Positions 441 to 56,628 of a stretch of 64,000 bases of DNA are shown piece after piece (within the stretch, counting starts at the first letter, position 1; every line of letters starts with the position of its first letter). Position numbers and translations under genes: made by a program. Under the pieces are notes generated by a model, which saw only the letters and a list, made by a program, of their open reading frames with translations, did no database searches and was not told the origin of the DNA. The DNA comes from Escherichia phage EP75, in the sequence record MG748547; one strand, written 5' to 3'.

Positions 441-646
441 ATATGTTTGCCTTCACACCCATATGGAGTTAGCTATGCTGCAATTAATTTTGATTCTTTG
501 CGTCGCTTTTACCATGTACTTTCTGGCGCGAATCAGTTATATCACACTAAATGATCTGAAAAATACACCACGCGAACCTAAATTTATATTTCTAAAGAAA
601 TACACCAAAAAGTTCTGCGAGAATTTTATCTATCATCTTCCATGAT

Positions 647-654
647 TATAAATA
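647..654 (+). promoter_or_regulatory. T4-type late promoter box TATAAATA
   Basis: Exact TATAAATA 22 nt upstream of ATG at 676, followed directly by hairpin ACCCCCAAAATTGGGGGT whose 3' arm carries the GGGGG Shine-Dalgarno. Confidence 0.5.
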
Positions 655-675
655 CCCCCAAAATTGGGGGTATTT

Positions 676-1404
676 ATGAACGCACAAATCTACGATGTCC
701 TTTCCTCTGGTAACGCATTTAGCAACCCGCTTCCGTCCCTCTCCGGTCCCTCACAGGATTTAATCACCAGTGGTAGTACCAATATACCATTGATAACTGC
801 CAACGCGACTCCGGAAATGCAGGTGGCTATGTCAGCAGGTGGATTAACACCAGATAAACTTACAGCAGCCACAAACATGTATAGCTCTGCCAACACGGGG
901 TTAACGACACTGAACACATATGGCGACCAGAGCATAAATGAAGCGTATTCAAGAATTGGGACTTCCGTTTCATATAAATCAGGTTTGAAAAGTATATCAC
1001 GGGAACCAAACAATTGTGACCTGATCAACAAAGCATTCGGTGTTGTTCAGGATCTAGGCCGCCAATGGTTAAACGCTATGGAAGGCGCTCTCCAGACTGT
1101 GACTAACAAGATATCGGAATTGTATGACATGATTATGGAAGGTGCCTCAGAAGGTATGGCAAAACTACAGCAATTGGCTGCTGAAGTAACAGGGTATATC
1201 AATGAGGCAATAACCGCCGTCAATGGAGTTATAAATGATATCACCGATGGGATAGCTGCAGAACTTGCTCATATTGAAAGTATGATCAAAGAATGTCTAA
1301 ACTTCTCTTTTGCGAATGTTCTTGGAGAATGGGCCAAAGATCTCTGTGCTGGAGGCGTTATTGATAAAATAGGGACTCCAGAATTAAAAGAGTCCCTGAA
1401 ATAA
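676..1404 (+). CDS. hypothetical late protein, possibly virion structural
   Basis: ORF 664..1404; ATG at 676 preceded by GGGGG SD and late box; Ser/Thr/Gly-rich N-terminus; no family recognised. Confidence 0.5.
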   Translation: MNAQIYDVLSSGNAFSNPLPSLSGPSQDLITSGSTNIPLITANATPEMQVAMSAGGLTPDKLTAATNMYSSANTGLTTLNTYGDQSINEAYSRIGTSVSYKSGLKSISREPNNCDLINKAFGVVQDLGRQWLNAMEGALQTVTNKISELYDMIMEGASEGMAKLQQLAAEVTGYINEAITAVNGVINDITDGIAAELAHIESMIKECLNFSFANVLGEWAKDLCAGGVIDKIGTPELKESLK

Positions 1405-3080: not shown

Positions 3081-3826
3081 TGGTTTCTCTACAGGCTTTG
3101 CGCAAACTTAATGACTTTGAAAATCGTCATCATACATTTCAGCAATATTCCTTGCCGTTTAAGGAACTGACTTGCGTAACTACTGAAAATGGTCGTCACT
3201 ATGTTTCTCCCACTGGAGTCAAACTGACTTCAGTGACGACCATGTTAGGGCGTACTGGTGACCACACATGGTTAGAAGCCTGGCGGGACAAGTTGGGGCA
3301 TGAAGCTGCTGATATAGAAACACATCGTTGCGCAGACCGTGGGGAAAAACTTCATTTGGCTTGTGAGTTGTATCTCAAAAACAGACCAATGAAAGAAGTT
3401 CTGGAAGCTGCAGGGGAATACGTGTTTATGTTCAAACAGGTTTTCCCCTACCTTAACAAAATGAGCAAGATATATGCACAAGAGATTCCATTATATAGCG
3501 AAGTCCTGGGTCTTGCTGGTCGTGTTGACCTCATCGGGGTTTACGAAGGAATTCCAAGCATAATCGATTTCAAAACATCCAACACCCTAAAAACTCGAAG
3601 CATGATAGAAGATTATAGTATTCAATTGTGTCTATACTCAGTCATGTTTCAACAAATGTTTAATGTCAAGATAGAGCGTTTAATCAATATTATATCCAAC
3701 GAAAATGCCCTTGTTCCCACCATAATCGAATTCGATCGCAAAGACGTTATTTCTAAAATGTTTGACCGTGTCCGTCTGTATCACAAAATGGACAAAGAAC
3801 AGAAAGGAATCTGGGCGGATCGCTAA
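3080..3826 (+). CDS. PD-(D/E)xK family nuclease (RecB/Cas4/YqaJ-like fold)
   Basis: ATG overlaps uvsY stop (TAATG); motifs GRVDLIG, IIDFKTS and QLCLYSV match D / (D/E)xK / QhxxY nuclease signature. Confidence 0.55.
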   Translation: MVSLQALRKLNDFENRHHTFQQYSLPFKELTCVTTENGRHYVSPTGVKLTSVTTMLGRTGDHTWLEAWRDKLGHEAADIETHRCADRGEKLHLACELYLKNRPMKEVLEAAGEYVFMFKQVFPYLNKMSKIYAQEIPLYSEVLGLAGRVDLIGVYEGIPSIIDFKTSNTLKTRSMIEDYSIQLCLYSVMFQQMFNVKIERLINIISNENALVPTIIEFDRKDVISKMFDRVRLYHKMDKEQKGIWADR

Positions 3827-3855
3827 ATACTCCATAATATTGGGGGAAATTAGTG

Positions 3856-5355
3856 ATGTCTGAGATCCAAATAGTCAAAGTGAACGAAGTTAGAATGCGG
3901 ATCCTTGCCGAGGATTATATCCGTGAAGAACTCAACGATTACTTCAAATTTGAAGATCCTAATTTCCAACCGAATCCGTTCAGTAAATGGGACGGCGTAG
4001 TGCGGTTGTTCACAAAGAGTTCTGGGCTTATCGACATCGGCCTGTTATTTGAGGTGTTCAAATTCTGTAAGATGAACGGTTACACCATCAAATTAGATCC
4101 GGCCTTAAAATATATTCAAGATATTCCGGATGAAGAAATTCATGCGTTCATCGATACATTGAATGCGGTGTACCGAGACGAAAACAAACAATATCAAAAA
4201 GCGATTGTCCGCGATTATCAATTTGATTCCGTTACCACAGCAATACGCCAAAGCAGATGTGTCCTCGAAGCTGCCACGAGTGCTGGCAAATCCTTTATTT
4301 TGTACATCATGGCGCGTTACTACAGGCAACGCAGAGATGCCCTCGAAAGTAATCTGAGGACGTTAATCGTTGTACCATCCATTCATTTGGTGACTCAGTT
4401 GTATGACAACTTCGAAGAATATAGCCACGGGACAGAATGGAAACCATTGATGAATGTCCAGACAATATACGAAGGGGCAACGAAAGAGATTTTCAAACCC
4501 ATAGTTATTTCAACTTGGCAAGGTATCCAGAACCAACCCAAAGAGTGGTTCCATCAATTTGGAGATATCGTCATCGACGAAGTACATACATCAAAATCAG
4601 ATAAATTGTCTTACATCTTGAACAACTGTATTAACGCTGATCAACGTTTGGGAGTAACCGGAACCCTGGCGAATACAAAGGTCGCGGGGTTACAAGTCGT
4701 TGCTCACTTTGGCGCATATCATAAAATTATTACAGCGCGCGATTTAATCGATCTAGGATATGCGGCAGACATCAATGTTAATATGATTGAAGTCATACAT
4801 CCTGTGGCAGACTGTATTGAAATGCACGGTGCTGAGTATCAAAAGGAAATAGAATTCCTCATTGCTAACGAACGCCGCAATGAATTGATAGCTCGAATGG
4901 CTCTGTCTTTGAAAGGGAACGTCGCAGTAATGTTCGAACGTATCGATGCACACATGATGTTGGTTTATGAAATGCTATCGGCAGTCAAGAAAAACGTATT
5001 CGTCATCAACGGGGAAGTCAAGACAGAAGTTCGTAAACAGATTCAGGCTGCTATGGAAGAAGGGGAAGATATAACACTGTTGGCATCATATGGTACTATG
5101 CAACAGGGCGTATCTATCAAAAAACTCCATCATCTGATATTGGCCCATCCCAGCAAATCTTATATCCGTGTTATACAGACATTGGGGCGTTTGATGCGCC
5201 AGCATTCCTCTAAGGATGTTGCGCGAATCTGGGACCTGGTAGACAACCTGCGTTACAACGGTTCCTACAACCATGCTCTCAGGCATTCTCATGAGAGATA
5301 TAAATTTTATCTTATGGAGCGCCACCCTGTTAAAATGAAAAAAGTGGCGCTCTAA
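3856..5355 (+). CDS. uvsW: UvsW-like SF2 DNA helicase
   Basis: 500 aa; Walker A AATSAGKS, DEVH box, TWQGIQNQPKEWF segment alignable to T4 UvsW; size matches T4 UvsW. Confidence 0.85.
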   Translation: MSEIQIVKVNEVRMRILAEDYIREELNDYFKFEDPNFQPNPFSKWDGVVRLFTKSSGLIDIGLLFEVFKFCKMNGYTIKLDPALKYIQDIPDEEIHAFIDTLNAVYRDENKQYQKAIVRDYQFDSVTTAIRQSRCVLEAATSAGKSFILYIMARYYRQRRDALESNLRTLIVVPSIHLVTQLYDNFEEYSHGTEWKPLMNVQTIYEGATKEIFKPIVISTWQGIQNQPKEWFHQFGDIVIDEVHTSKSDKLSYILNNCINADQRLGVTGTLANTKVAGLQVVAHFGAYHKIITARDLIDLGYAADINVNMIEVIHPVADCIEMHGAEYQKEIEFLIANERRNELIARMALSLKGNVAVMFERIDAHMMLVYEMLSAVKKNVFVINGEVKTEVRKQIQAAMEEGEDITLLASYGTMQQGVSIKKLHHLILAHPSKSYIRVIQTLGRLMRQHSSKDVARIWDLVDNLRYNGSYNHALRHSHERYKFYLMERHPVKMKKVAL

Positions 5356-6065: not shown

Positions 6066-6734
6066 ATGCAAGAGATCACTCTTTCCGAACGCACTTTACA
6101 ACTGCTGGCTAACTTTGAAACCATCTGCCCCTCTATCGTTCTGGCACCTGGTAAAAAGTTGCGCACTGTTAACGATTCCAGTACAGTTATCGCTATTGCC
6201 GACATTGACGAAGACTTCCCGTTCGAATTCCCGATTCTGGATCTGACCAAATTGCTGGCAATCCAGCGTCTGCCGAGTTTTAAAGGTGGTAAAATTGAAA
6301 TGTCGGAAGACCACATTTTGCTGAAAGGTGAAAACTCCCAACTGCAATTCTGGCGTTCCGCTAAAGAACTGACTGTCGTTCCGGCAGACAGCATCGATCT
6401 TCCGTCTGTAGAATTTGAAGCAACAGTCACTCCTGAAAAAATGAAAGAGCTGACTCGCGCCTGTTCTACTCTGGGCCACAAAACTGTACGCCTGGTGGCC
6501 AGCGGCGGTAAAACTCGTCTGGTGGGCACGACCACTACTATCGACAATTCCAACGATTACACTGTTGAGTTGGGTGAAACAACTCTGGGTGATTTTGCTA
6601 TGCCTGTTGATGTGGTCAACCTGAAAATGATCGAAGGCAACTATGTGATCCGCGCCTGTGCCGAAATGCAACTGGTTAACTTCCAATCCGCAGATGGCAC
6701 CATCAACTATTACGTCGGCATGCAGCTGGATTAA
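6066..6734 (+). CDS. 45: sliding clamp (gp45-like)
   Basis: 222 aa; N-terminus LSERTLQLLANFETICPSIVL aligns with T4 gp45 N-terminus; size and position before clamp loader genes. Confidence 0.9.
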   Translation: MQEITLSERTLQLLANFETICPSIVLAPGKKLRTVNDSSTVIAIADIDEDFPFEFPILDLTKLLAIQRLPSFKGGKIEMSEDHILLKGENSQLQFWRSAKELTVVPADSIDLPSVEFEATVTPEKMKELTRACSTLGHKTVRLVASGGKTRLVGTTTTIDNSNDYTVELGETTLGDFAMPVDVVNLKMIEGNYVIRACAEMQLVNFQSADGTINYYVGMQLD

Positions 6735-27197: not shown

Positions 27198-27968
27198 ATG
27201 GGTATGAATTTTATAGACAGGGGTGATAACGTCACCAAATATTTCACAGACGAAGATAATGACCGTGTTGTTGGAATATTGAGAGATTGGATTCCGGCTC
27301 GCAAAAAGGCTTTGGCCGAAGGAACACCCCTACCAAGAATCCCCAATTATGTGGCCATGAATGTTCAGATGATTATTAAGAACATGAGTATGCGCTACAA
27401 CTATCGTGATTATCCATACCGCGAAGACATGGTCAGTGAGGCCGTTGTCAACATCCTTCGTTACCTCCATACATTTGATGTCAGTCATATCGGCAAGAAA
27501 GGAAAAATCAATTTTTTCTCTTGGGTAACGATGTGCGCCGACCGTTCATTCGCCAAGAAACTCACCAGTGAAGAAGAACACAATTATATCAAGTTGCGTT
27601 CATTTGAAGAAGCAGGTGGGTTCGCTGCATTATCGGATGACCCAGACTTCCAACAACAAACCTTCGTTGATAGCACTGGGATAACGATGGACTTCCGTGA
27701 GCGTATCGGAAATTTTGAAACTAAGAAAGAAGCCCAGCGCGAAAAGGAACGCCAAAAGCAAATCGCCATCAAAGAAGAGGAAAAGAATAAGAAAATTCCT
27801 CGCGGTATACTTCAATGTCTTACGAAGAGTGAAAATACCATTACCGCTGACGCCGAAGATAATTCAGATAATGACTTCGGCTCTACTCAATTTAGTCTTG
27901 AAGATATAATGGACAGCCCCACATTGTTAGCCGAATCAGTTGGAGAAAAGAATAATGGCGATTGCTAA
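27198..27968 (+). CDS. 55: late sigma factor (gp55-like)
   Basis: Region RYNYRDYPYREDMVSEAVVNILRYLHTFD aligns with T4 gp55; followed by 47 and 46 as in T4; acidic C-terminal extension; alternative ATG at 27183. Confidence 0.7.
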   Translation: MGMNFIDRGDNVTKYFTDEDNDRVVGILRDWIPARKKALAEGTPLPRIPNYVAMNVQMIIKNMSMRYNYRDYPYREDMVSEAVVNILRYLHTFDVSHIGKKGKINFFSWVTMCADRSFAKKLTSEEEHNYIKLRSFEEAGGFAALSDDPDFQQQTFVDSTGITMDFRERIGNFETKKEAQREKERQKQIAIKEEEKNKKIPRGILQCLTKSENTITADAEDNSDNDFGSTQFSLEDIMDSPTLLAESVGEKNNGDC

Positions 27969-37585: not shown

Positions 37586-37617
37586 AATCCCCCTAAATAC
37601 AGGGGGATTTCTTTTTC
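37586..37617 (+). terminator. intrinsic terminator
   Basis: ATCCCCC-TAAATAC-AGGGGGAT hairpin followed by TTCTTTTTCT. Confidence 0.6.
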
Positions 37618-37630
37618 TGAGGAAACAATC

Positions 37631-37984
37631 ATGGTTAACGCGAGTATATTCATCAACCGTGGACTGCTTGCTATAGCCCACTCTCATGCCCTCCACTTCG
37701 TTACAACGTCCTATGCCAAGCACAAGGCACTCGGGGAGTTCTACGGGAAACTGGAGGACTTGCTGGACACCTTTACGGAAGCGTATATTGGTGCGGGTGG
37801 TATATACATTCCAGGATTCGAGAACATCAAATTATACAATCCTGAACCGATATCGTATATCAACAGCGTGGTCATCGACGTTAATGGGATCTACAATCAG
37901 TGTGATAGCCATTTACAAAACACGCTTGACGAAATCAAAACTTTGTGCTATCAAACGATTTACAAACTGAAGCAATTGTCCTAA
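37631..37984 (+). CDS. hypothetical protein
   Basis: 117-aa ORF. Confidence 0.4.
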   Translation: MVNASIFINRGLLAIAHSHALHFVTTSYAKHKALGEFYGKLEDLLDTFTEAYIGAGGIYIPGFENIKLYNPEPISYINSVVIDVNGIYNQCDSHLQNTLDEIKTLCYQTIYKLKQLS

Positions 37985-41006: not shown

Positions 41007-41036
41007 TTTAAATACCTCTGCAATCACTGCGGAGGT
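41007..41036 (+). promoter_or_regulatory. late-like box TTTAAATA abutting an SD-sequestering hairpin upstream of the endolysin gene
   Basis: TTTAAATA (41007..41014) immediately followed by hairpin ACCTCTGC-AATCACT-GCGGAGGT whose 3' arm contains the GGAGG SD; ATG at 41045. Confidence 0.4.
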
Positions 41037-41044
41037 ATTTTCTT

Positions 41045-41839
41045 ATGGCCATTCTAAAACTTGGCAACCGAGGTTCTGAAGTCAAATCACTTCAGCAAAG
41101 CCTCAATAAAATCGGGTTCTCTCTTATAGCTGATGGCATATTTGGTAAGGCGACCGAGAATGCTGTCAAATCCGTTCAGGCAGGTGCCGGACTGGTGATT
41201 GATGGTATTGCAGGTCCAAAAACCTTCTATGCTATCCGTAATGCCGGAGACGCTCATCAGGAACATCTTACCGAAGCCGACTTAGTTGACGCAGCGCGTG
41301 AACTTGGTGTCGAACTGGCCAGCATGAAAGCTGTTAACCAGGTCGAATCTCGGGGTACTGGTTTCACCAAAACAGGTAAGATCAAAACTCTGTTCGAGCG
41401 CCACATCATGTATAAGAAAGTGGCGGCTAAATTCGGACAAGCAAGAGCCAATGCTCTGTACCAACTTTACCCAACATTGGTTAACCCCAATTCTGGTGGC
41501 TATATCGGCGGAGACGCGGAGTTGGAACGCCTTCAGGGTGCAATCGCCCTTGATGAGGACTGCGCGTACGAGAGTGCGTCCTACGGCTTATTCCAGATCA
41601 TGGGGTTCAATTGCCAGATATGTGGTTATCCGAACGCCAAAGAAATGTTCACAGATTTTCTGACTGGTGAACGTGCACATCTTCTGGCATTTGTGAAATT
41701 CATCAAAGCTGACGCCAATATGTGGAAAGCATTGAAGAACAAAAATTGGGCTGAGTTCGCCCGTCGGTACAATGGTCCAGCATATGCCAAGAACCAGTAT
41801 GACACCAAACTAGCGGCGGCATACAAGAGTTTCTGTTAA
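41045..41839 (+). CDS. endolysin: peptidoglycan-binding domain plus N-acetylmuramidase-like catalytic domain
   Basis: N-terminal PG_binding-like repeat (LKLGNRGSEVKSLQQSLNKIGF ... IDGIAGPKTF); C-terminal domain with FQIMGFN and YNGPAYAKNQYD resembling phage muramidases. Confidence 0.75.
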   Translation: MAILKLGNRGSEVKSLQQSLNKIGFSLIADGIFGKATENAVKSVQAGAGLVIDGIAGPKTFYAIRNAGDAHQEHLTEADLVDAARELGVELASMKAVNQVESRGTGFTKTGKIKTLFERHIMYKKVAAKFGQARANALYQLYPTLVNPNSGGYIGGDAELERLQGAIALDEDCAYESASYGLFQIMGFNCQICGYPNAKEMFTDFLTGERAHLLAFVKFIKADANMWKALKNKNWAEFARRYNGPAYAKNQYDTKLAAAYKSFC

Positions 41840-46663: not shown

Positions 46664-46893
46664 CCAATTCTGAAATATATCATGCTTCTATGCATTATCA
46701 TGACCTACGCGCCCGTCCAGGACACGCCAAACAAAAAGCATTCTGGGTAGCAGAACTCAGATTACGCCGTGCTGTCGTTAACCACCAAATAATCATGAAT
46801 CGGAAAAACGACAAATCACCGTTGTTGGCAGATTCTTATCTTGAACTCCGCACAGCCTATGAACAAGCCAAACAGCACGTAATAGGAGCATAA
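46660..46893 (+). CDS. hypothetical small early protein
   Basis: 78 aa; start within conserved initiation repeat GCAGGAACTATATCATGA. Confidence 0.4.
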   Translation: MTNSEIYHASMHYHDLRARPGHAKQKAFWVAELRLRRAVVNHQIIMNRKNDKSPLLADSYLELRTAYEQAKQHVIGA

Positions 46894-53053: not shown

Positions 53054-53285
53054 TTATGCCTGTACAGGTTGTGGAAATTCGTTTAGTGCTCGAAAATCTT
53101 GTGCTGAACGTCATACACCTGAATTAGAGCCATGTTCTGAATGTGGCGGTGAAATAAAAATGATTATTGGAGCACCAAAGATCGTATCTGGTGTTCGTGG
53201 TCCTCAGTCCGCGCCTGATGGCTTCAAAGACGTTTTGCGTCATATTAAGAAGCAATCAGGGAAGGGGAATACAATCGATGTCTGA
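53040..53285 (+). CDS. FmdB-like zinc-ribbon protein
   Basis: MPFYDYACTGCG ... CSECGG two CxxC pairs typical of the FmdB zinc-ribbon family. Confidence 0.4.
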   Translation: MPFYDYACTGCGNSFSARKSCAERHTPELEPCSECGGEIKMIIGAPKIVSGVRGPQSAPDGFKDVLRHIKKQSGKGNTIDV

Positions 53286-53520
53286 TCAACAAATAGCACA
53301 AGTGCTCACACCAGATTCTTTTTCCGAATTGGTGTTGATGAGAGCAAGCCAACGCAAGGAATCAATCCTTGAAACGATGGCCAGTGTTTGTGAAGAGTAT
53401 GACATCGAAGAAGCAAAGGTCAAAAAATTGATCACGCCTCCTCTTCTGTCAAGGCTAACAGCTGAATGTTCTGATGCTCGGTTGTTGAAGGGTGAATTGA
53501 AATCTAAAAAACTCATTTAA
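53278..53520 (+). CDS. hypothetical small protein
   Basis: 80 aa; ATG at 53278 overlapping previous stop. Confidence 0.35.
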   Translation: MSDQQIAQVLTPDSFSELVLMRASQRKESILETMASVCEEYDIEEAKVKKLITPPLLSRLTAECSDARLLKGELKSKKLI

Positions 53521-54933: not shown

Positions 54934-55869
54934 GACAACATCCTGCAACAATCCGAGTAAACTACTCTTCTCAGACGCCGTCAGGTTATCATTGCCTAAT
55001 ATATCCCTCTGGATGCCGATAGAGATCCTTTCGAAATCAGCCAGGCTGATACCAGCCAGATTGTTTACAAGCTGATCGAGTTGCTTATAAGCCAGCAGGG
55101 CTTCACCTGTGAAGTTTCCTTCTTTGATCTTTTTATACAGCTGTCCGGCTTTTGACGCAGCGGTTTCCCAGTCTCCGGAAGCAAGAGCATCAGTAATACC
55201 CAAAGGAAGAAAATCGCTGGCGAGGCTGCGCGTTTCATATTCAGTCTCCGATAATACTTTGTTATAAGAAAAGGAAATGTTGTACTGATTAAATTGATCG
55301 GCGGCGCTTTTATCCAGGTCTATAGAACTGAAGTTGATGGGGTGAGCCTCAGTCACATAAACGCGATGAACAACCTGATCTTCTGTATCCATTTGTTCTA
55401 TACAAATATCGGTCACGAAATCTTCATAATAACCCATCTTGGTTGTGTATGGGTCGAATATCAGATTCTTCCATTTGTCCATGACCGACTTTTCATAATA
55501 ATCGTTGGCGAGGAGGAACGACAACTCCAGATCAATGTTCGTCTTGTTGTTCGGCATTTTAATGTGGTTGCCGTTGTTGGTCATGGGAGTAGTGTCAATC
55601 CCTGTACCAGGTAAAGATGCGACCATACACATCATTTGCAGGGAACGAGATGTTTGGTTTGTCCCTCCAAAGAATGCGTTTACAATACGGGCGCTTTGTT
55701 TGAACAGATCCCCAAATGATGAAGATGAAGGATACGCGTTCCCATCATTTGCTAGTGTTGCATTGGAATCAAATATCCCAGGCGGCAACGGAATTGTAAC
55801 ACGAAATCTGTTCTTGCGGGAAATACCCCGTTGAAGCAGTTGCGTTAGAAAATTGCGATAGTCTTCCAC
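54925..55869 (-). CDS. hypothetical late protein
   Basis: Long - strand ORF; proposed GTG start at 55869 preceded by GGAG SD and exact late box; upstream in-frame part of ORF overlaps the promoter and the divergent + gene. Confidence 0.4.
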   Translation of the reverse strand: MEDYRNFLTQLLQRGISRKNRFRVTIPLPPGIFDSNATLANDGNAYPSSSSFGDLFKQSARIVNAFFGGTNQTSRSLQMMCMVASLPGTGIDTTPMTNNGNHIKMPNNKTNIDLELSFLLANDYYEKSVMDKWKNLIFDPYTTKMGYYEDFVTDICIEQMDTEDQVVHRVYVTEAHPINFSSIDLDKSAADQFNQYNISFSYNKVLSETEYETRSLASDFLPLGITDALASGDWETAASKAGQLYKKIKEGNFTGEALLAYKQLDQLVNNLAGISLADFERISIGIQRDILGNDNLTASEKSSLLGLLQDVVKN

Positions 55870-55893
55870 GATGAGGACTCCATTTAAATAATA

Positions 55894-55901
55894 TATCTGT
55901 T
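55894..55901 (-). promoter_or_regulatory. T4-type late promoter box TATAAATA (- strand)
   Basis: Plus-strand TATTTATA; 25 nt upstream of proposed GTG start at 55869. Confidence 0.45.
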
Positions 55902-55923
55902 GATATTTATAAGGAGTTGACAA

Positions 55924-56628
55924 ATGGCTAAGAACGCTATGGGTGAAGAAGACCCGTTGTTGCTTCCCGCCGAGATGGACGCCCCAGAACTGGTCAAGCG
56001 TTACATCCGCAAATATCGTCAACATTTTGGGCCGGAAGCGAAGCGTAATATCCGTCGTTCTCATGTGTGGTTTATGGAGCGCGTGTCGAAAGATGCTAAC
56101 TTATCTCCGAATCACATGATGAAAGCATTCGCTGAAAATAAACGTCCTGTTCAGGGTGTGCGTTATATTGTTGGTCGCATGTATTATTTCAAATATGATG
56201 CGCTGACTAAAGATGAACTCCCGTATTGGGATATGTATCCTCTGGTGTTCTTCTTCAATTTTGTGAAGGGGGATGGAGTGAAATTCGGTGAACGTGGTGT
56301 AACCTATCTTTATGGCCTAAACCTCCATTATTTACCGCCTAAACTCAGATTGTTGGTATTTGAAGATCTCATTAAATTGAGAAATGAACGGGCATATCGT
56401 TCTAAAACACGTTTGAGACTTACCTGGGATGCGCTAAAGCGGTTTGCGAATCACCCTTTGTACAATCATTGTGTCAAATTATACCGCGCAGATCAATTTC
56501 GTTCACAACTTTATGAAATTGAACCGCAATATTGGGAGGTCGTTTTGTTTATGCGTACTGCTCGATTCCAGAAACAGAGTCAGATGTCTGTTTGGAAGGA
56601 CGCACGTCGTAAACACAAAAATGGTTAG
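55924..56628 (+). CDS. hypothetical protein
   Basis: 234 aa, strong SD AAGGAG, basic C-terminus; no family recognised. Confidence 0.5.
   Translation: MAKNAMGEEDPLLLPAEMDAPELVKRYIRKYRQHFGPEAKRNIRRSHVWFMERVSKDANLSPNHMMKAFAENKRPVQGVRYIVGRMYYFKYDALTKDELPYWDMYPLVFFFNFVKGDGVKFGERGVTYLYGLNLHYLPPKLRLLVFEDLIKLRNERAYRSKTRLRLTWDALKRFANHPLYNHCVKLYRADQFRSQLYEIEPQYWEVVLFMRTARFQKQSQMSVWKDARRKHKNG

Follow-up and report, generated by a model that had tools for sequence, protein, structure and literature searches.

A probable translational gate ahead of a virion protein gene

A 64,000-nt stretch of Escherichia phage EP75 (sequence record MG748547; hereafter "the window," the positions of which are used below unless another genome is named) carries, directly upstream of the gene at 676–1404 on the plus strand, a hairpin that combines a T4-type late-promoter box with the ribosome-binding site (RBS) of that gene. 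We consider it probable that this leader is a translational gate of the T4 gene e type, with a gp55-type late promoter embedded in the 5′ arm and the RBS in the 3′ arm; only RNA begun at the embedded promoter would then probably be translatable. The gene encodes a DUF7217 protein of 242 amino acid residues, a homolog of Det7 gp24. Its ortholog in phage LIMEstone1, ORF129, is annotated as a structural protein and has been confirmed in the virion by mass spectrometry, from which the gene at 676–1404 is assigned to the late class.

The late-promoter box, TATAAATA, is found at 647–654 (+), with the invariant core TAAATA at 649–654, and lies wholly within the 5′ arm. On folding, this arm (UUAUAAAUACCCCCA, 646–660) pairs with the 3′ arm (UGGGGGUAUUUAUGA, 665–679) over 15 bp, one of which is a G-U pair, around a 4-nt loop (AAAU, 661–664), the one part that varies between genera. 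Both the Shine–Dalgarno (SD) sequence GGGGG (666–670) and the AUG (676–678) are paired within the 3′ arm; the former, 5 nt 5′ of the ATG, is the sole SD-like run in the 21 nt separating box from start codon. The first-pass annotation of this DNA had described an exact TATAAATA followed by the palindrome ACCCCCAAAATTGGGGGT before the ATG at 676, with the GGGGG of its 3′ arm as the only SD-like sequence. All of these elements are indeed present (the palindrome, as read from the sequence, at 654–671, +), but the hairpin proper is larger than the palindrome, a perfect 15-bp structure spanning 646–679.

The hairpin is exceptionally stable. In isolation it folds at −20.8 kcal/mol (z = −3.8), a value equaled by none of 200 shuffled sequences, and in a 71-nt context at −21.7 kcal/mol (z = −4.5), which again no shuffle matches. 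In T4 the late box spans −13 to −6 (PMC1524935); applied here, this rule places the predicted 5′ end of the late transcript at A660 (+), the first purine past CCCCC and 6 nt beyond the box. The box thus lies inside the DNA coding for the 5′ arm and the predicted start 3′ of most of that arm. An RNA comprising 660–700 folds at only −2.2 kcal/mol (z = +1.4). Rfam models produced no match to the site at gathering score; the only hit, Phe_leader, reached 23.5 bits where 55 are needed (E = 0.75, chance level).

The mechanism that we propose is as follows. RNA entering from upstream would carry both arms, and the 15-bp hairpin at 646–679 would bury the only SD and the AUG, leaving gene 676–1404 untranslated from read-through RNA; some of these transcripts would probably stop short at the hairpin and the U-rich tail that follows. 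Polymerase equipped with the phage late sigma factor would instead start about 6 nt past the box at A660, downstream of the CCCCC in the 5′ arm, and the resulting late RNA (AAAAUUGGGGGUAUUUAUG...) would be incapable of forming the hairpin, so that its RBS would be open. Read-through RNA could arise from a second late box at 436 or from early-like promoters some 2.6–2.9 kb upstream. The latter, of the form TTCAAT-N13-GGTATTAT, are located at 99590 and 99852 of Salmonella phage Se_EM4, on the same strand as the target gene, and a terminator scan found no terminator-like site in the 2.5 kb before this gene; judged from sequence, such upstream sources are plausible. The early-like promoters belong to a family TTCAAT-N13-GGTAT(T/A)AT with members at Se_EM4 99590, 99852, 11936 and 157258 (+) and at 46865 and 44124 (−), where the complement of the spacer often follows.

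The window phage encodes the proteins that T4-type late transcription would call for. The box is presumably read by a gp55-like late sigma factor, encoded at 27198–27968 (+; PHROG 234, E = 3e-53). A gp33-like late transcription co-activator is specified at 53278–53520 (+; PHROG 254, E = 4e-23) and a gp45-like sliding clamp at 6066–6734 (+; PHROG 223, E = 2e-65); the annotation of Se_EM4 agrees with all three. In T4 the gp45 sliding clamp is the activator of late transcription. With these proteins encoded, late transcription of the T4 type is to be expected in this phage.

Cost of opening the RBS

The first 3.2 kb of the window match 223 phage records, the best of which is Salmonella phage Se_EM4 (99.5%), followed by Det7 and other members of the genus Kuttervirus (Ackermannviridae). 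The complete genome of Se_EM4 (157,810 bp) was used as a whole-genome proxy. For each called gene, we computed how much free energy is needed to render positions −14 to +3 unpaired in an 82-nt RNA, 70 nt of which are upstream sequence. The target RBS costs 21.1 kcal/mol to open in read-through RNA, ranking first among the 95 genes of the window and first among the 219 of Se_EM4; for RNAs starting 4–8 nt past the box the predicted cost falls to 2.4 kcal/mol. RNA from the embedded promoter is thus predicted to lack the structure. The same starts give approximately 3.5 kcal/mol at the endolysin gene and 4–5.5 kcal/mol at the tailspike genes.

The first-pass annotation had called for a genome-wide scan of late boxes next to SD-sequestering hairpins, and the outcome is a clear enrichment. 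In Se_EM4, costs of at least 10 kcal/mol are found at 13 of 24 late-box genes versus 24 of 195 others (Fisher p = 8e-6), and costs of at least 12 kcal/mol at 11/24 versus 8/195 (p = 1e-7); seven of the ten highest costs in this genome belong to genes with a late box in the hairpin. For the window alone the figures at 12 kcal/mol or more are 3/9 versus 1/86 (p = 0.002). The result is reproduced in LIMEstone1, which belongs to a different subfamily (Aglimvirinae) and in which the orthologous sites are conserved: 12 of 26 late-box genes versus 26 of 183 others reach 10 kcal/mol (p = 4e-4). Furthermore, the 16-nt segments starting within the box pair with the RBS of their own gene at a mean of −9.3 kcal/mol (cis) versus −5.5 kcal/mol with the RBSs of other genes (trans), and none of 20,000 permutations reaches the cis value.

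T4 served as a control. There, 10 of 36 late-box genes versus 21 of 234 others reach 10 kcal/mol (p = 0.003), and among 270 genes the documented cases segB, 49, e, I-TevI, and I-TevII rank 4, 6, 9, 10, and 15, respectively, with soc at 42 and the defective I-TevIII at 188. The recovery of the documented cases indicates that the scan finds what it should. The cost at the target gene exceeds that of every documented T4 case, the maximum of which is 16.1 kcal/mol.

The late box of this phage family

The recurrent motif 5′ of recognizable late genes in Se_EM4 is CTAAATA. It occurs in 22 copies on both strands of the 158-kb genome, 16 of them 5–60 nt 5′ of a start codon on the same strand, and the genes concerned are nearly all virion or lysis genes. 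The corresponding values for ATAAATA, TTAAATA, and GTAAATA are 4/20, 2/15, and 1/16. The exact TATAAATA is a minority variant with six copies in Se_EM4. The box named in the first-pass annotation is present at the site, while the general late box of the family is CTAAATA-like rather than strictly TATAAATA. The raw number of TATAAATA copies in the window is not above chance (4 versus 1.9 expected; 20 of 100 shuffles reach 4). All four, however, are situated 5–60 nt 5′ of a same-strand start; such places make up 4.2% of strand-positions, giving a probability of about 3e-6 for four out of four. De novo k-mer enrichment within the window gave a weak signal, because the window consists mostly of replication genes, and the whole Se_EM4 genome was needed.

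A CTAAATA variant of the late box has been described for Aeromonas phage Aeh1 (PMC1524935). [quoted passage not shown]

Two arrangements of the box elsewhere in the window deserve mention. At 55884–55911, two divergent genes each have a late box on their own strand, TTTAAATA (+) for a gp2-like gene at 55924 and TATAAATA (−) for a tail-tube-like gene starting at 55869; the two are mutual inverted repeats 12 nt apart. At 37589–37630, 5′ of the gene at 37631, a CCCCC/GGGGG hairpin followed by a T-run holds CTAAATA in its loop, that is, a promoter within a terminator-like hairpin, not an RBS hairpin.

Recurrence at the endolysin, tailspike, and other genes

The endolysin gene (41045–41839, +; ATG at 41045) is preceded by the same architecture, as the first-pass annotation had recognized. 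Its leader (41007–41047, +) consists of the box TTTAAATA at 41007–41014 and a 13-bp hairpin (41010–41022/41028–41040) with the SD, GGAGG (41031–41035), in the 3′ arm. Opening of this RBS costs 14.6 kcal/mol, so that the target and endolysin genes, both with a late box in the 5′ arm, rank first and second among the 95 of the window. The 5′ arm differs between phages, reading CCTCTGCA in the window (41015–41027) and CCTTCGCA in Se_EM4 (145072–145084) and LIMEstone1, and the loops are not the same either. Each of the two 5′ arms pairs along its full length with the 3′ arm TGCGGAGG, with the position of the G-U wobble swapped.

Clear instances of the design comprise the target, the endolysin, tailspikes 1–3, neck gp14, baseplate gp6, and the genes starting at Se_EM4 57602, 47052, and 61713. 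The stem sequences differ from site to site with pairing kept: CCCCCA/UGGGGG, CCUCUGCA/UGCGGAGG, CCCCUA/UAGGGG, CCCCAU/AUGGGG, CCUUCA/UGAGGG, and UCCUCGC/GUGAGGA. At gp14, Se_EM4 47052 and 57602, and tailspike 1, the SD is sequestered even though a U-rich tail is lacking.

A weaker hairpin with a GGGGG SD is found at 3823–3858 of the window, where CTAAATA lies 26 nt ahead of a UvsW-type helicase gene; its cost of 13.0 kcal/mol is third in the window, and the uvsW ortholog of LIMEstone1 is likewise recorded with a late promoter. Outside the window, at Se_EM4 72686–72760 and 74898–74972, tailspikes 2 and 3 are preceded by 41 identical nucleotides, ttcataaattttattagttcagaCTAAATAccccatattgg, which include the box and the 5′ arm; this sequence may be a linker for swapping tailspike cassettes. 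Homing-endonuclease genes with no recognizable late box can also possess very strong RBS-sequestering hairpins, namely those at Se_EM4 112721 (17.1 kcal/mol; the gene is absent from the window) and LIMEstone1 F-LimX 132351 (19.3 kcal/mol).

Conservation

Upstream of the target ortholog, the box and an 11-bp core, AAATACCCCCA/TGGGGGTATTT, are found in Kuttervirus, Taipeivirus, Agtrevirus, Limestonevirus, and a Yersinia phage. The TAAATA core is kept in these five Ackermannviridae lineages, while the preceding base varies (A, T, or C) and the loops differ (AAAT, TCAAT, CATCC). The AUG is paired in the window phage; in other genera the SD alone is paired. An apparent A-U/U-A swap beside the loop was rejected, as the Kuttervirus pair would leave a 2-nt loop. 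An IMG/VR search with the target protein returned close Kuttervirus relatives only.

A scan of IMG/VR with the pattern TAAATACCCC-N3-20-GGGGTATT yielded at least 118 loci. Among the matches listed, 61 of 136 are followed within 0–12 nt by an open reading frame (ORF) of at least 50 codons, compared with 11% of random positions (p = 3e-23), and 28% have an ATG-initiated ORF at 3–5 nt versus 1.2% of random positions. The N-termini encoded are of at least 20 kinds, one belonging to a T-even lysozyme (MNIFEM..., 164 amino acid residues). From this enrichment before ORFs and the diversity of N-termini, the promoter/RBS hairpin module is, at the sequence level, a common leader design in T4-like viruses.

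Comparison with T4 and its relatives

In T4, genes e, soc, 49, and I-TevI are gated in this manner, and the long RNA gives approximately 100-fold less lysozyme synthesis (PMC3014915). RBS-sequestering hairpins of the same kind are known for I-TevI to I-TevIII, segB, and mobE of Aeh1 (PMC2988022). The closest parallel is gene e (McPheeters et al. 1986, via PMC3014915). There, as at the target, the late promoter is located in the DNA for the 5′ strand and the SD and AUG in the 3′ strand; the long early RNA is untranslated and the late RNA lacks the 5′ strand, which is what we propose for the target. The layout in gene e (TAAATACC...GGTATT; TAAATACC...GGAGGTATT-ATG; TATAAATACCTTC...AGGAGGTATTATG) corresponds to that of the target, and the window phage, like T4, has the design at its own endolysin gene. 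So far as can be tested in sequence, all defining features of the T4 class are present at the target.

The two differ in several respects. The window phage belongs to the Ackermannviridae, not the Straboviridae, and the target encodes a virion protein rather than a lysis enzyme. Its stem is longer and more stable, with 15 bp and an opening cost of 21 kcal/mol compared with 15.1 for T4 e in the same scan. The target has one embedded box where T4 e has two, and a further late box just upstream. Finally, the T4 gate is proven by experiment, whereas that of the target is a prediction from sequence. T4 soc, like the target, is a structural gene, and the logic of a late promoter within the hairpin is common to soc, 49, I-TevI/II/III, segB, and Aeh1 mobE; Aeh1 uses CTAAATA, the variant dominant in the present phage. 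In T4 the device is found at a handful of mostly nonstructural genes in early or middle units, with 10 of 36 late-box genes at 10 kcal/mol or more. By comparison, about half of the late-box genes of Se_EM4 and LIMEstone1 (13/24 and 12/26) reach this value, including tailspike and neck genes situated behind late genes, which is roughly twice the T4 prevalence.

No description of the device for ViI-like phages was found in the searchable literature, which did not cover the genus paper. The proposed mechanism is already known from T4 gene e and probably recurs here in another family and at a structural gene; no new principle is involved. The finding is well supported computationally and mechanistically ordinary for T4-like phages.

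Weighing the interpretation

Several observations weigh against a T4 gene e-type gate at 676. An exact TATAAATA late box occurs 211 bp upstream of the embedded one (436–443, +), 31 nt ahead of a small ORF at 475–645 (+) which encodes 56 amino acid residues with a hydrophobic N-terminus (PHROG 4845). Late RNA begun at this box would also carry the closed hairpin, so that an early/late switch is not the whole logic. This upstream box is kept as CATAAATA in Agtrevirus, Limestonevirus, and a Yersinia phage and is annotated in LIMEstone1 as a "putative late promoter." The TGA of the small ORF (643–645) ends 1 nt 5′ of the hairpin, and terminating ribosomes could part-open the structure, resulting in coupling rather than a block; moreover, the hairpin resembles a borderline intrinsic terminator. 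Among 10 distinct ortholog sequences, all 11 core pairs are invariant and the covariation score is 0, which is uninformative and no proof of selection for pairing because box and SD are each constrained on their own. The gene starts came from a crude custom caller, which adds noise to the opening costs. What the sequences show directly is the hairpin with its stability, its loss from truncated RNA, its recurrence at late-box genes, and its conservation between genera; since no 5′-end, RNA-seq, or reporter study of Kuttervirus or Ackermannviridae was found in the searchable literature, promoter activity, start site, read-through, and the effect on translation are all inferred.

The upstream box also bears on how the device should be described. 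The first-pass annotation had suggested a general device restricting translation to late transcripts. The enrichment speaks in favor of this reading, with one qualification. The tailspike genes, gp14, and the target lie downstream of late genes or a late box, and therefore translation would be limited to transcripts begun at the promoter of the gene itself, rather than simply to late ones.

The strongest competing explanation, which we nevertheless consider unlikely, is that the hairpin is simply an intrinsic, possibly bidirectional, terminator of the ORFs at 18–440 and 475–645, in which case box and SD happen to draw on its A-rich and G-rich stretches and the RBS is buried to no regulatory end. 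Like such terminators, the target hairpin has a GC-rich stem, a short loop, and A-rich 5′ and U-rich 3′ flanks that are complementary, and it begins 1 nt past the upstream stop codon. Under d'Aubenton-Carafa-type scoring (threshold 0; background 99th percentile −29), its core TACCCCCAAAATTGGGGGTA with the tail TTTATG reaches −6.8, just below the threshold and far above that background. Of the other terminator-looking hairpins of the genome, two have similar scores (−6.6 and −11.6) and two higher ones (32 and 8); that of the endolysin gene reaches +4.1. Better U tails are seen in orthologs from other genera (TATTTTCTT), and T5-7 closes many of the IMG/VR examples of the module. Both genes carry 28-nt "factor-independent terminators" in the LIMEstone1 record. 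As recorded (HE600015.1), these features lie at the starts of ORF129 (local 700–727) and the endolysin gene (local 4223–4250), sequences with no fold (−0.1 and −4.9 kcal/mol); the 28-nt hairpins stand directly upstream, and a shift in the recorded coordinates is therefore probable.

Unlike a typical intrinsic terminator, however, the target has an interrupted U tract (UAUUUAU), and its 3′ arm, with the sole SD and with pairing that reaches over the AUG, doubles as RBS. A consensus terminator scan makes no call here, but it lets the stem run on into the A/U flanks and is therefore no test of the U tail. Box/SD hairpins also occur with no U tail (gp14, Se_EM4 47052 and 57602, tailspike 1) or with loops of 14–17 nt (tailspikes), and these score −22 to −41 or not at all; action solely as a terminator of the upstream gene, which the first-pass annotation had named as the alternative, consequently fails for the class. 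The preference for an ATG-initiated ORF at a fixed 3–5 nt in the listed IMG/VR matches and the T4 homologs of the same layout, which are proven translational gates, likewise argue against it. Termination and gating are compatible, and "solely" is the weak part of this alternative; partial terminator function at the target site is plausible.

Rather improbable, in our estimation, is the idea that the hairpin couples gene 676 to the small upstream ORF, with ribosomes at the TGA (643–645) melting the outer stem, or that it stabilizes or processes the 3′ end of the upstream mRNA. The stop codon 1 nt before the stem, and the location of the TGA 2–5 nt ahead of the box in all genera examined, are what one would expect of coupling. 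But at the endolysin and tailspike genes a distance of some 30 nt or more separates the upstream stop from the hairpin, or else the preceding gene is encoded on the opposite strand, and hence coupling is not the general logic. The GC core CCCCCA/UGGGGG over the SD would, from the size of the ribosome footprint, survive a terminating ribosome, and the embedded late box is left unexplained. The adjacent stop allows some translational coupling at the target, not at other sites.

That the site is a DNA-level element unrelated to RNA (an operator or cruciform), or an accidental palindrome by an accidental TATAAATA, is highly improbable: the raw box count, the lack of covariation in the stem, and the operator overlapping the late promoter of T4 I-TevI (PMC2988022) are in its favor, but it has to contend with 0/200 shuffles folding as well, four of four TATAAATA boxes 5′ of genes, the enrichment tests in Se_EM4 and LIMEstone1 together with the cis/trans permutation, and stems that persist between genera in which loops vary. 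The operator or cruciform version was rejected, as stem sequences that vary between paralogous sites and loops of 4–17 nt do not fit one DNA-binding protein.

One further observation concerns the annotation of the target gene. Three adjoining ORFs, 18–440, 475–645, and 676–1404, match successive segments (20–146, 161–207, and 259–500, respectively) of the 500-column profile PHROG 289 ("GTP-binding domain"). This profile looks like a chimeric family made from fused gene calls, which would account for GenBank records that name the DUF7217 structural gene "GTP-binding domain."

Implications

Returning to the T4 gene e-type gate, we tentatively raise the possibility, which we think doubtful at present, that it is a genome-wide rule in the Ackermannviridae, operating at about half of the late cistrons (among them tailspike, neck, and baseplate genes behind late genes) such that each is translated from its own promoter only, by means of a self-contained terminator/promoter/RBS cassette. 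If true, the cassette would insulate the dosage of each structural gene from read-through and, with 41 identical nucleotides at two tailspikes, might be a portable linker for tailspike exchange.

Phages of the ViI/Det7/CBA120 type are widely used in biocontrol of Salmonella and E. coli O157. The results provide a concrete, testable model of late-gene control for them and point to a CTAAATA-like late box, with approximately half of the late promoters fused to hairpins that hide the RBS. Hairpins labeled as terminators in database records are probably dual-purpose, and annotation should take into account that promoter, terminator, and RBS overlap at such sites. For engineering, a tailspike swapped without its leader, or driven from an upstream promoter, is predicted to give untranslated RNA. 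More broadly, the analysis would extend a textbook T4 mechanism to another family of phages and to structural genes.

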